A stretch of 64,000 nt of DNA from Eledone cirrhosa (Eukaryota), in the NCBI GenBank assembly GCA_964016885.1, contig OZ024747.1:44144001-44208000 (forward strand). The letters run 5' to 3'. Of this stretch, positions 2,838 to 63,359 are shown one piece after another (within the stretch, counting starts at the first letter, position 1; each line of letters begins with the position of its first letter). The notes below the pieces were generated by a model. The model was not told the origin of the DNA. It made no database searches and saw only the letters and a program-made list of their open reading frames with translations. A program made the position numbers and the translations under genes.

Positions 2838-3203
2838 AAATATACACGGGTGTGTATGATTGTGTATAGAAGATTATATTAATAAGAGGAATTCCAACTT
2901 TGTCTGATTTACTAGTTTTATTTACAATCCTTTAAAATTTATAATGGTATTATAATGAAATAGTATGATAGAATGTTAAGTGTTAATTGAACAAGTACTT
3001 TCATGCTTTCGCAGTTGAAAATTGCAAACTTGACTGTCACCACACATTATGAACCTGAAGATTGCGAAAGCATGAAAGTACTTGTTCAATTAACACTTAA
3101 CATTTAATATTCTATCATACTATTTCATTATAATACCATTATAAATTTTAAAGGATTGTAAATAAAACGAGTAAATCAGACAAATTTGGAATTCCTCTTA
3201 TTT
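2838..3203 (+). mobile_element. Inverted-arm element, family B, in microsatellite
   Basis: Tail 2838-2878, arms about 2880-3012 and 3063-3203; second single-arm copy at 54573-54800. Confidence 0.75.
3050..3088 (+). ncRNA. Minimal type-I hammerhead ribozyme
   Basis: tgaac-CTGAAGA-ttgc.gaaa.gcat-GAAA-gtac-TT-gttca; palindromic stem III (agtact), CUU site. Confidence 0.8.
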
Positions 3204-3318
3204 ATATATATATGTATATATATATATATATATATATATATATATATATATATATATATATATATATATATATATATGTGTGTGTGAGAAAAACCACAGA
3301 CCCTCCATCTCAACTCAT

Positions 3319-3354
3319 CTTTTGAAAAGCAGAAGAACTGCGAAACCCGTAAAG
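3319..3354 (+). ncRNA. Minimal hammerhead, U3-A8 core variant (in family K element 3281-3426)
   Basis: ctt-TTGAAAA-gcag.aagaa.ctgc-GAAAC-cc-GTA-aag. Confidence 0.6.
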
Positions 3355-3539
3355 GAACCAAATAAATATATATATTTTTTTTAAAAATAAGACTCCAGTT
3401 GCATTTTCGATTTCATCTCTTTTTCTATATATATATATATGTATATATATATATATATATAGAGAGAGAGAGGGGGGAGAGAGAGAGAGATACATACATA
3501 CATATAAATAAATATATATATGTATATATGTATATATGT

Positions 3540-4330
3540 TTGGGTTTCAATTTGGATCTCAGAAGCTGTTGTCACCATCCAAAAGTTGTCACTGACATAG
3601 ACTTCGTCGATGACATTGCCTTGATCACAGAGGAAATCAGCCAAGCTCAAGCACTGCTCACACGTGTCGAGGTTGAATCAGGCAAAATAGCACTGCATCT
3701 CAATGCAAAGAAGAACGAAATCATGCACTACAATCAGGTTGATCCAGCTCCTTCTTGCTAAGGACGGCACAACAATCAAAACAGTTGAGAACTTTAAGTA
3801 TATTGGTGCATGGATGCACAGCTCACGTAAGGACTTTGAAGTTAGAAAAGCACCAGCATGGTCGGCATGCCACAAGCTATTGAAGATGTGGATGTCCGAC
3901 CTAAACCGCAAAATCACGGAGCGCCTCTTCCTAGCAACTGTTGATTCCGTCCTGCTTTACGTGGACTATTGATAAAGTGCTATGCAAGAGACTTGACGGA
4001 TGTTACGCGAGGATGCTGAGAATGGCTCACAACATTTCTTGACAAATGAAGAACTATACAAATACCTACCAAATAGAGTTGCCTGCCGACGAATGAAACT
4101 GGCTGGGCACTGCATCCGTCATCCAGAAGAGATAGCATCTCAACTTGGGCTCTGGAAACCGGCGGTCGGACGAAGAAGCGTGGAAAGACATGCCGTCTCA
4201 TTCATTGATAACCTGCTGAGAGATGCCAGCATTGAAAACATCGACGAACTGAGAAATGTCATGCTCGACCGGGATGATTGGAGAAAGCCTGCTGAATCTT
4301 TGCGAGTGTAAACTCGGCCGAAGAAGAAGA
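3540..4330 (+). mobile_element. RTE-clade LINE, 5'-truncated, frameshifted RT C-terminal part
   Basis: DIDFVDDIALI, LHLNAKK, FKYIGAWM and RRMKLAGHCIRH across three frames; (GAA)n 3' end. Confidence 0.85.
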
Positions 4331-4499
4331 TATATGTATACATATATATCAGTAGCGAAGGGTAACCTGGAAAGCAGGGCATGCAGTCCAATCGCCATGG
4401 CGGAAAGTGGGGCTGTGCAGCCTTACCCCCCCCCCCAATTCCCTCAAAATGACGTTCCCGGTCAAAGCCGCATGTAGTGTAATCTAGTGTGTGTGTGTG

Positions 4500-5099
4500 T
4501 GTTCCCTGGGACCCCCATTTGTTATTGATGTTTCCTTTGAGAGGCCCCCATTGTCTGCAACTGACTGGCTTCTGTCTTTTAAGAAATCATGCAGCCAATC
4601 ACCTACTTTTCCAGTTATGCTGAGTCTGTGTAGTTTGTGACATAACATTCTGTGGTCGACCTTGTCAAAGGCCTTCGCAAAGTCAAGATATATCACGTCC
4701 ACGTGTAAGGTGTCTAGCAGTTGTTTCAGTACCCAATCATAGTGTTGTAGCAGCTATGTAAGGCAGCTACTTCTTGGGCGAAAGCCATGCTGCGTGCGAG
4801 TTAGGCCGTCATTTTTTTCGAGGAACGTGATCAGTTTTTTCTGATGATTCGTTCCATGACCTTACTGATATGTGACGTCAGGGAGACTGGCCTGTAGTTT
4901 TTGGCCTCCGCTCTACTTCCTCCTTTGTGGATAGACATATTAAGCCTTTTTTACCTCTCTGGGTAGTTTACCGCTAGTCAAAGAACTTCTGAAGAGGATC
5001 TTCAGTAGTCTTGCTAAGGCACGCTTACATGCTTTTAGGAGGACTGCTGGGAATCCATCAGGTCCAGCAGCTGAGTTTGATCTAATTTCTTCTATGGCG
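4500..5099 (-). mobile_element. CR1-type LINE RT fragment (decayed)
   Basis: DVIYLDFAKAFDKVDH motif; upstream SAAGPDG and NYRPVSLTSH-like coding remnants. Confidence 0.85.
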
Positions 5100-61297: not shown

Positions 61298-62061
61298 TCA
61301 CAGGTTACAAAGAACCATGTCATGGTCTGAGAGAAGGGTTTTTTCCACTGTAATATTATGTATAGTATTAGTGTGGTTACTAAACACTAGATCCAGAATG
61401 TTCTTCTGATGCCTTGTTGGTGCAAGGACAAGTTGGGACAAGAAAGACTCATTTATGAAGTCAAGAAGTGACTCGAATGCTTCTTTGAGGTTGAGGTTGG
61501 GCTGCCTGGTTTCAAACTGCTTGTAGACCAATCGACACAGGGTAGATTAAAGTCTCCCATCAAAAATATGTTGCTAGAGTGGCACTGTTTAATAAAGCAT
61601 TTAATAGTGTTGAGGCATTCTTTGAAGCAAATTATGGGTGTTTGTGGTGGCCTATAGAGCCCAACTAATGTCAGGTCATTGGCTTTGTTGTGCACAGTGA
61701 CTGATTCACAGTAGCAATTGGAGAATGTTGTAATACCATCTGCTGTAAAGGAATCATGCAGGAAAATTGCAGTTCCACCCTTCTTTCTGCCAACACGATC
61801 CGCGCGGATGGTTGTGAAATTCCTCATTCTTACTTCGGCCTCCATGTGGGAGTTGTCAAGGTGGGTCTCAGTAAGAATGAAGAAGAGGATGTGAAATGGA
61901 TGGTTACCAACCCAATCCTCAATGAATTGGATCTTCCATTTCTGTTCATTGATGGATGGGCTGATACCTTGTGTATTGAGTAAAAATGTGGAGGCTAGTG
62001 TGGTGGCTGGTTTTGACTGTTGCAGGGGGCTTGTTTTGAGATTGTGTGTTAGTGACAGCAA
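61298..62061 (-). pseudogene. LINE APE endonuclease domain (frameshifted)
   Basis: ORFs 61453-62061 and 61298-61531 carry consecutive APE motifs. Confidence 0.88.
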
Positions 62062-62317
62062 GGATGGTGTTGGGTGATGGCTAAAATGTTTTCTGTATCT
62101 CTTTTGCCAGGTTCATGGCTAAAAAAGAAAAATGTTCTTGTTCATGGAGCAGTTTTTGATTGGATTTGTGGTTACACCATTGGATAGGGTTGAAGTTCCC
62201 TCTTTTATTGTCGTTGTTGCTGTACTTGTTGTTATTGTAATCGTGTCTTTGTGTAAAAACTGGAGCAGCATTACTTTTGTTGTTGTTGTTGTAATCGTGT
62301 CTTTGTATATATATATA

Positions 62318-62808
62318 GTTAGGGAAGCAGAAAATTGCTTATTGTAATCCAGTTCGTGGTTAAGAAAACCAGTTTCATGGACGGTTTCAACATACGGTTA
62401 GGGGTAACTCCACAAGTTTGTAAGAATCACGTTCAATCTTGGAGCATAAAGAATAAAAGAGAAAACACAGGTAAGCATTAAAAAAAGATTTTATCCAGGT
62501 ATTTACGACCGTTTCATTGGTAAGTGCAACCTTATATTGCTATACTGCAAATAGCAGCCACTTTAATAATAATTGTTGTTCACCTCCAAATTTTCAAAAT
62601 AATGAATAAGTTACTTTTTTATATATTAAGAATCTTTTACGAGTGACTTATTCATTATTTTGAAAATTTGGAGGTGAACAACAATTATTATTGAGTGGCT
62701 GTTATTTGCAGTATAGCAATATAAGGTTGCACTTACCAATGAAACGGTCGTAAATACCTGGATAAAATCCTTTTTTTAATGCTTACCTGTGTTTTCTCTT
62801 TTATTCTA
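62318..62808 (+). mobile_element. Family J tail plus palindrome with twin U3-A8 hammerheads 62500-62601(-) and 62656-62756(+)
   Basis: tatt-TTGAAAA-tttgg...ccaat-GAAAC-ggtc-GTA-aata; arms about 62451-62614 and 62642-62808. Confidence 0.75.
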
Positions 62809-62962
62809 TATAAATATATATATATATATATATATATATTATGTATATATATATATACATATATTATATTATATATTATATTATATATATATATTATATA
62901 TATATATAAATATATATATATATATATAACATATATATATATATGTATATATATATATATAT

Positions 62963-63053
62963 ACAGGCTGTCCTAAAAAATGTATACACACATTGATTGC
63001 AATATTTATTAGAATGGTGTTAAAGTGTGTATACATCTTTTGTGGACACCCTG
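62963..63053. mobile_element. Tc1/mariner-type mini-MITE
   Basis: TA|CAGGCTGTCC ... GGACACCCTG TIRs. Confidence 0.65.
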
Positions 63054-63101
63054 TGTATATATATATATATATATATATATATATATATATATATATATAT
63101 A

Positions 63102-63359
63102 TTGTTATACTTTGGGAGGCTCATGTTGCCAATAAGAAACACACGCACCAGTTGCTTTCACTCCAATTTATTATAAATTAAATTTATAAATTTAAGAATT
63201 TATAAATTTGCGGTTGGTTGGTTCCAAATTGGAGTGAAAGCAACTGGTGCGTGTGTTTCTTATTGGCAACATGACCCTCCCAAATTATAACAATATCGGT
63301 TTCAACAAACGTTTTCAGATAAAGAATCTTGCTAACTTGCTAAACAAATTCGGAAACGA
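63102..63359 (-). mobile_element. Family C pLTR end, inverted arm and complete tail
   Basis: 63102-63170 inverted at 63226-63293; tail 63294-63359 ends gctaaacaaattcggaaacga. Confidence 0.85.

Follow-up and report, generated by a model that had tools for sequence, protein, structure and literature searches.

The window analysed here is a 64,000-nucleotide stretch of the Eledone cirrhosa genome (GenBank assembly GCA_964016885.1, contig OZ024747.1, positions 44,144,001 to 44,208,000, forward strand). Its (TA)n tracts hold insertions built as inverted repeats, twelve of which had been singled out in an earlier note made from the sequence alone. By motif and architecture, they are assigned to Penelope-like elements (PLEs). 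Two kinds of end recur, a short, tail-less end (S) and a long, tailed end (L), and two-armed insertions that meet (TA)n on both sides combine one of each. The features are given below, with RT for reverse transcriptase, EN for endonuclease, ORF for open reading frame, UTR for untranslated region, and pLTR for the pseudo-long terminal repeat. Hammerhead cores are matches to CTGANGA...GAAA, which we take to be the hammerhead-type core motif; cleavage activity is putative here.

2838..3203, family B; 37-bp tail on the left, meeting (GATA)n, S on the right, hammerhead core at 3055
12972..15021, family G copy of 2 kb, not in the earlier note; S on the left, inverted L end on the right of only ~20 nt, broken RT/GIY-YIG remnants on the minus strand
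25194..25712, family G copy, not in the earlier note and read by eye; S on the left, short L-end piece on the right
25762..26030, relative of family A; S on the left, 28-bp inverted arm and 96-bp tail on the right
27234..27369, family H, short copy with L and S, not in the earlier note
27741..28460, family C, short tandem-unit element (~565 nt); S on the left, 118-bp tail on the right
30582..30858, relative of family A; S on the left, 68-bp tail on the right
30931..31237, family E; 99-bp tail on the left, S on the right with a 6-nt match to (TA)n
31280..38508, family D two-armed insertion (Hydra-clade PLE); L end on the left, S end on the right
31281..31415, minus strand, family D tail of 135 bp; it begins the next tandem unit and leads into the 5' UTR in full copies
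31930..34151, plus strand, family D ORF with RT and GIY-YIG-type EN; its 5' part is cut off by the head-to-head junction, other copies having the full 813-aa ORF
38302..38455, plus strand, putative hammerhead-type motif of the family D pLTR; CTGAAGA core at 38309
41909..44052, family A insertion, non-coding; the long arm 41909-43806 (minus strand) bears the tail (41909-42002), and the short arm 43807-44052 ends at S; hammerhead cores at 42109 (minus) and 43946 (plus)
44807..45230, perfect 338-bp palindrome (44893-45230) with an 86-bp tail on the left
48446..48741, short hammerhead-bearing element; S on the left, 80-bp tail on the right
54824..55171, relative of family A; 105-bp tail on the left, S on the right
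62318..62808, family F; 128-bp tail on the left, S on the right; other copies have a Hydra-type EN upstream of the arm
63102..63359, family G short copy (Neptune/Nematis-type PLE); S on the left, 63-bp tail on the right

The layout reported in the earlier note held up at the level of individual loci. An inverted repeat is present at 12/12 of its loci, with one arm meeting (TA)n directly and the other extended by 37-136 bp before (TA)n; at 2838, the tail reaches (GATA)n first and (TA)n after. The four TA-rich motifs quoted for tail-less ends lie where they had been placed, to within 1 nt. Outward orientation of both 3' ends agrees with the hammerhead-type core, which reads outward on the short-ended arm at 9 of the 12 loci; a motif scan of these loci saw no such core in the copies at 30931, 62318, and 63102. 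Other parts of the description need amending. The tail is one-sided, as claimed, but it does not always sit on the short inverted arm: at 41909-44052, the tailed arm is the 1.9-kb body. Although the arrangement applies to all 12 loci, it is not universal, as single-armed copies ending at S or at L are common. Lastly, the rule was said to span unrelated families; it does span two PLE clades, but the families number ~7-9 rather than 12, five or six of the loci being related (25762, 30582, 41909, and 54824 align at 72-86%).

Inverted repeats bounded by (TA)n exceed chance in the window, where 13/82 inter-TA segments carry a terminal 14-mer with an inverted copy, compared with a mean of 0.22 (maximum 2) in 100 dinucleotide shuffles. 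We also sampled 1.06 Mb of the genome, comprising the window and five 200-kb blocks chosen regardless of content. An inverted repeat was found in 117/1088 inter-TA segments, 53 of them with an arm no more than 8 bp from the tract. Among these 53, a one-sided tail of 25-170 bp is present in 39; the remainder include one with 9-24 bp, five with >170 bp, and eight that look symmetric. The symmetric-looking cases resolve into one tailed element, three that continue past an internal TA run, two instances of a duplicated 542-bp palindrome, one different terminal-repeat element, and one ambiguous case, so none of the eight can be shown to be a tail-less pair from a tailed family.

Every family tested has both fixed ends, which are 30-160 nt apart and lie within the pLTR-to-ORF junction. 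When arm-internal or tail sequences of families D, G, F, and A were used as queries, copies ended at S or L and ran directly into (TA)n, with a few alternative ends near S in family F. The 5' ends and the centres differ copy by copy; for the element at 44807..45230, copies on other chromosomes keep both ends and differ in the centre. The earlier note had predicted that alignment of many copies per family would reveal a fixed tail-less end and a variable central junction, and this is what we found, rather than fixed symmetrical termini with fixed centres or randomly placed tail-less ends. Separately, the short ends of two family F copies (L093, L094) meet (CT)n ahead of (TA)n, where the element itself is rich in CT.

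The two ends occur at near-equal frequency (L/S counts of 19/19 in D, 18/18 in F, 25/21 in G, and 16/11 in H) and are combined one each. L+S pairs account for 11/14 in family D, 9/12 in F, and 4/6 in A, for which the query included the tail; family G gave 13/13 among pairs with both ends on TA, plus one more, and family H gave 8/8. As a forward test, we examined 20 kb around each of 10 ORF-bearing family D copies. Six had two ordinary outer ends, and 6/6 were L+S, in both arrangements; the other four loci comprised two single-armed copies, one extending beyond view, and one duplication with flank. In total, 52 two-armed insertions are L+S, with 0 L+L or S+S having both ends on (TA)n, where free choice of ends would give about half homopairs. 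The remaining pairs mostly have an end off the locus, run through into the tandem unit, are rearranged, or use an alternative end point.

The arms of a given insertion are more alike than arms of different insertions. Differences per nt within versus between insertions are 0.005/0.017 for family D, 0.030/0.044 for F, 0.038/0.065 for G, and 0.016/0.039 for A. Restricted to recurrent variants, family D arms show 0 differences in 2080 nt versus 0.010 per nt between insertions. In the window copy, arms 31416-31929 and 37994-38508 are complementary at 99.6%, and long family D copies have 0-1 mismatches between arms over 282-500 nt versus 4-26 to the window copy. A 13-kb insertion (L269+L270) holds the same nested 225-bp family D piece in both arms, with one mismatch in 4.7 kb. 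These comparisons suggest that the two arms of one insertion match one donor.

The longer arm can be S or L, whereas a tail is found on L arms only. Among clean pairs, the S arm extends >15 nt further 5' than the L arm in 3/10 for family D, 3/4 for F, and 3/7 for G; in the window family D copy, it reaches 6 kb further. Some L arms are 14-40 nt in length and stop inside the tail. Because the tail is confined to the L arm, the S arm often reaches further 5', and L arms can stop in the tail, neither arm was copied from the other. This supports the proposal of the earlier note that two separately primed arms are later joined, since one arm can far exceed the other in either direction.

The 5' ends of family D arms cluster. 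Within the pLTR (window 31584-31640; L031-L060), 25/35 fall in a 65-nt stretch at the hammerhead 5' edge, with 0 in the 283 nt upstream and 10 running past; candidate causes are an RNA start, RT stalling, or joining at a hairpin. In family H (e.g., window 27234-27369; L231-L250), L+S copies of 135-245 bp are very common; all have their centre in the same hairpin loop, yet the centre sequences vary. A systematic G/T difference between arms at the family D S site was considered and rejected, as it is a private change of the window copy.

The sequence that follows the tail reveals where L lies in the element. In family D, the tail continues into the 5' UTR and ATG at 25/30 ORF-anchored loci; in family G, it continues in frame into the ORF at 11/12 loci, and the 63-bp tail of 63102..63359 falls within the ORF start of tandem copies. 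Family C displays the same continuation inside the window, where 28160-28243 repeats, in antisense, the end of the tail together with what comes after it. In 4/4 families of known continuation, L shares 3-5 nt with (TA)n (ATA in D, ATAT in G, TATAT in C, and TAT in the fourth). S and L are thus both internal, TA-like sites, and the tail is not the end of the element. The earlier note had the tailed arm primed at the true RNA 3' end, a view that these continuations in families D, G, and C and the TA-like character of L do not support; an RNA end processed at that site may nonetheless exist.

At S, we reduced 39 elements to 21 families, 19 of which had a clean junction, and compared them with random junctions in the same arms. 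Microhomology of S to (TA)n averages 2.8 nt versus 1.0 at random junctions, and at least 3 nt are shared in 12/19 families versus 2.3 expected; 0/100000 resamples reach either statistic. The TA-like excess at S supports the TA-rich site described in the earlier note; pairing as its cause is deduced, and an endonuclease preference predicts the same sequence.

RT/EN motifs, architecture, and the PLE literature cited below uphold the earlier identification of these elements as PLEs, and inverted pLTRs and tails as PLE traits. They are assigned to Hydra-clade families, a Neptune/Nematis-type family, and non-coding hammerhead-bearing derivatives. The architecture includes partial pLTR tandems, an inverted 5'-truncated copy, and a tail at one end; (TA)n flanks mask any target-site duplication at these insertions. 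The family D ORF comprises an RT followed by a C-terminal GIY-YIG-type EN, with YRDD and YIG motifs, and is an intact 813 aa in 5/10 long loci. A Pfam scan returned no match for the family D protein. It has 215 relatives at E<=1e-20, one of which is named as a GIY-YIG endonuclease, and the two named relatives among the 120 matches listed come from a cephalopod. RWR occurs near the start of full copies (in 91 relatives, K in 54 and R in 28), DKT replaces DKG, the linker CxCX5C reads CNCRNKANC, CxxC and CxH read CRLC and CNH, CCHH is lacking, and insertion is into (TA)n. In PMC8557442, the Hydra-clade traits are RW(K/R), DKT, CxCX5C, absence of CCHH, CxxC and CxH, a (TA)n target, and a hammerhead. 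By its ORF motifs, family D is accordingly placed in the Hydra clade. The best 40 genome matches to the start of its ORF are 99-100% identical, and the family appears young, with natural intact ORFs. At several of 30 family F loci, Hydra-type EN sequence is found 500-1000 bp upstream of the arm.

Family G, with members in the window at 63102, 12972, 25194, and 53678, has an RT, a CX4CxxC linker (CIDKKCITC), and a CCHH GIY-YIG domain (C-TEGQ-C...H...H) that Pfam matches as GIY-YIG. These motifs place it in Neptune or Nematis and alone cannot split the two clades. The N-terminal half of its ORF (L296-L312) contains long Asn/His/Thr-rich low-complexity inserts resembling those described for rotifer PLEs. 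The remaining families are non-coding, most with an outward hammerhead-type core. For the family D hammerhead, the core motif and closing stem are present, and minimum-energy folds recover the hammerhead fold only partly. The hammerhead is not among the 150 listed of 282 Rfam matches, a scan swamped by microsatellite hairpins.

The reading that we consider probable, from the layout of the copies, is double target-primed reverse transcription, starting at two internal sites on the RNA of a single donor, followed by head-to-head joining. Once the element endonuclease had cut (TA)n on both strands, each of the two resulting ends, annealing by a few bases to the RNA at S or at L, would prime its own complementary DNA (cDNA). 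Given that (TA)n is its own reverse complement, the asymmetry should come from the side of the element; one RNA, or one cis-acting particle, may serve both ends, such that each site is used once per event. The two cDNAs would stop independently, often at the hammerhead 5' edge or in an RNA hairpin, after which their 3' ends would be joined head to head and filled in. Priming at one end only would yield a single-armed copy, and the protein for non-coding families would come from an autonomous relative. Either one RNA might be read twice, by strand displacement or through its two pLTR copies, or two same-donor RNAs might be held on a protein dimer; a homodimer prediction for residues 1-475 of the family D protein returned no support, and no verdict was drawn either way. 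An in vitro precedent exists for a Poseidon PLE, whose protein cuts both strands and extends both, with starts at two internal RNA sites bracketing the tail (Frangieh et al. 2024, PMC11167929).

Several observations weigh against this scheme. In that in vitro system, the start site is NOT homologous to the cut DNA, and there is no strand difference in start site (PMC11167929). Exactly at S, 7/19 families match (TA)n by only 0-1 nt, and the microhomology that does exist fits primer pairing and endonuclease preference on element DNA alike. Family G arms keep 20 recurrent-variant differences in 1519 nt (0.013 per nt vs 0.034 between insertions), and arm identity could instead stem from gene conversion after insertion. 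Three cases depart from simple L+S pairing: a family G pair (L090) has two S-like ends, one off TA; in L096, the partner of L stops 13 nt short of S; and L259+L260 is a duplication including flank. When 22 central joints were scored for exact microhomology, 14 carried inserts, partly from reference differences, and the remaining 8 were blunt or overlapped by 0, 2, 2, 2, 3, 3, 15, and 16 nt.

One alternative, which we regard as unlikely, places the asymmetry after synthesis: a head-to-head DNA copy would be made first, and the GIY-YIG domain would then cut one arm at S and its partner at L, both TA-like, prior to target joining. PMC8557442 offers this reading for the tail. TA-like S and L suit an enzyme preferring (TA)n, and PMC11167929 both reports that AT-rich DNA at the junction of the element itself is cut and cites recognition by the D. 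virilis enzyme that depends on the tail. Same-donor arms fit equally, and two full-length bodies have their 5' end exactly at S (L127 (L263+L264), L306). Yet two identical arms would end as one S and one L only under an extra rule, (TA)n occurs at the S site upstream of the tail in only 1 locus among all examined, L arms of 14-40 nt stopping in the tail are simplest as short cDNAs, and in vitro start sites match genomic ends (PMC11167929). Fold-back of one cDNA (or of antisense RNA; PMC3846280) at a palindrome, which would then copy itself and end at S by microhomology with (TA)n, is improbable in general. It would account for identical arms, for the family H centres within one hairpin loop, and for short copies with near-symmetric hairpin centres (7/10 clean D pairs within 15 nt), and it may make some short copies. 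A copy cannot hold sequence that its template lacks, yet S arms exceed L arms while only the L arm is tailed; these asymmetric pairs exclude fold-back as a general rule.

The version in the earlier note, with S primed internally and L at the true RNA 3' end, we hold to be very unlikely. L is as sharply fixed as S, which an RNA terminated or processed at L would explain; however, tandem and full-length copies require transcription of the sequence beyond L, which is 5' UTR or ORF (D, G, C). In addition, L is TA-like, internal starts are used at both sites in vitro (PMC11167929), and L ends lack poly(A). Least credible of all are true miniature inverted-repeat transposable elements (MITEs) with fixed termini and centres, or palindromes made by assembly. 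The perfect palindrome at 44893-45230 and the 8/53 symmetric-looking repeats would suit them, but centres differ per copy, arms are continuous with RT/EN ORFs, and ends and joints occur in raw reads. For the families tested, we reject the MITE reading, as symmetric fixed termini were not found together with a fixed centre.

The scheme of two internal start sites has partial counterparts in known systems. In L1 twin priming, both target ends prime on one RNA, resulting in an inverted 5' part; L1 lacks overlap between the two cDNAs and has a variable second site, whereas here both sites are fixed and arms mostly overlap. The Anolis Poseidon PLE studied in vitro, PAc, shares the two internal RT starts bracketing the tail, cutting and extension of both strands, and an AT-rich target; it differs in that its start is not target-homologous and pairing of starts within an event is not reported, whereas here the sites carry short (TA)n matches and are used one each (PMC11167929). 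As described by Craig et al. 2021 (PMC8557442) and Arkhipova et al. 2013 (PMC3846280), a canonical EN+ PLE insertion is a 5'-truncated body with an inverted, 5'-truncated copy, head to head, often with a tail at one end only. That layout, the pLTR hammerhead, a tail overlapping the ORF start, and palindromes at the joint are shared here; tails of 33-156 bp rather than 30-40 and strict adherence to one tail in 52 pairs are different. The two papers explain the inversion by self-priming and the tail by endonuclease resolution.

Families D and F share with the Hydra clade the motif set, (TA)n target, and a putative hammerhead as given in PMC8557442. Family D departs in its unit of ~6.5-7 kb with a long microsatellite-rich 3' UTR, the described elements being <3 kb (a general description, not a defining one), and in its very high copy number with 99-100% identical copies. 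The supplement of the same paper contains two Octopus Naiad families in (TA)n. Non-LTR retrozymes (bioRxiv 10.64898/2026.07.22.740005) likewise stem from PLE pLTRs and are short, non-coding units of type I hammerhead, as are families A, B, C, and H; they are defined as tandem arrays, whereas here the copies are mostly dispersed head-to-head pairs, with family C in partial tandem, an observation that bears on retrozyme membership.

Layout, one-end tail, and (TA)n targets are already published PLE traits and would not surprise a PLE specialist. What is added is the one-each S/L rule and the same-donor arms, a testable refinement of PLE mechanism. We found no account of twin priming, strict one-each ends, or same-donor arms for PLEs in the open literature, most subscription papers lying outside that coverage. 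PMC8557442 counts the formation of inverted repeats and tails in PLEs among the tasks still open. A strict one-short-one-long rule on a symmetric target, together with same-donor arms, narrows the models and provides a sharp test, which is practical because family D is young, has intact natural ORFs, and uses a simple target. More tentatively, PLEs might integrate by obligate asymmetric twin priming, in which one particle uses two fixed internal RNA sites once each, with a few (TA)n bases annealed at both; this alone could account for the inverted pLTR and the tail on one side, with no need for endonuclease resolution or self-priming, in two or more PLE clades. For annotation, the thousands of MITE-like palindromes in this genome are to be treated as retroelement products.

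A comparison with raw reads covered family D. Its L end on (TA)n was recovered in 621 and 545 raw Illumina reads from two other DNA runs, and depth was ~tenfold greater on the tail than on the 5' UTR. A loose end at the hammerhead 5' edge was seen in 205 reads, with a few strand-switch joints there. The S site is absent among the loose-end positions listed, 277 further ones lying outside that list. At L259+L260, the 7.3-kb inverted duplication includes ~2.4 kb of flank beyond the short end, and 14 nt from the long end of family D cap its far side; the duplication looks like read-through copying set beside its donor.

Beyond the elements described above, further inverted-arm elements in TA tracts of the window lie at 2112-2317, 3283-3423, 27489-27715, 40282-40530, 54173-54539, 55803-56078, and 58374-58863, several of them one-sidedly tailed. 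A 200-N gap at 23097-23296 closes a 1.9-kb TA tract, and a degenerate tandem array with a 71-bp unit spans 40640-41701. A broken long interspersed element with AP endonuclease and RT domains lies at 59275-62112 on the minus strand. A repeat of 150-200 bp resembling a short interspersed element is present in many copies (129-318, 18136-19093, 27005-27188, 38746-38921, 47024-47862, and 50192-51419).

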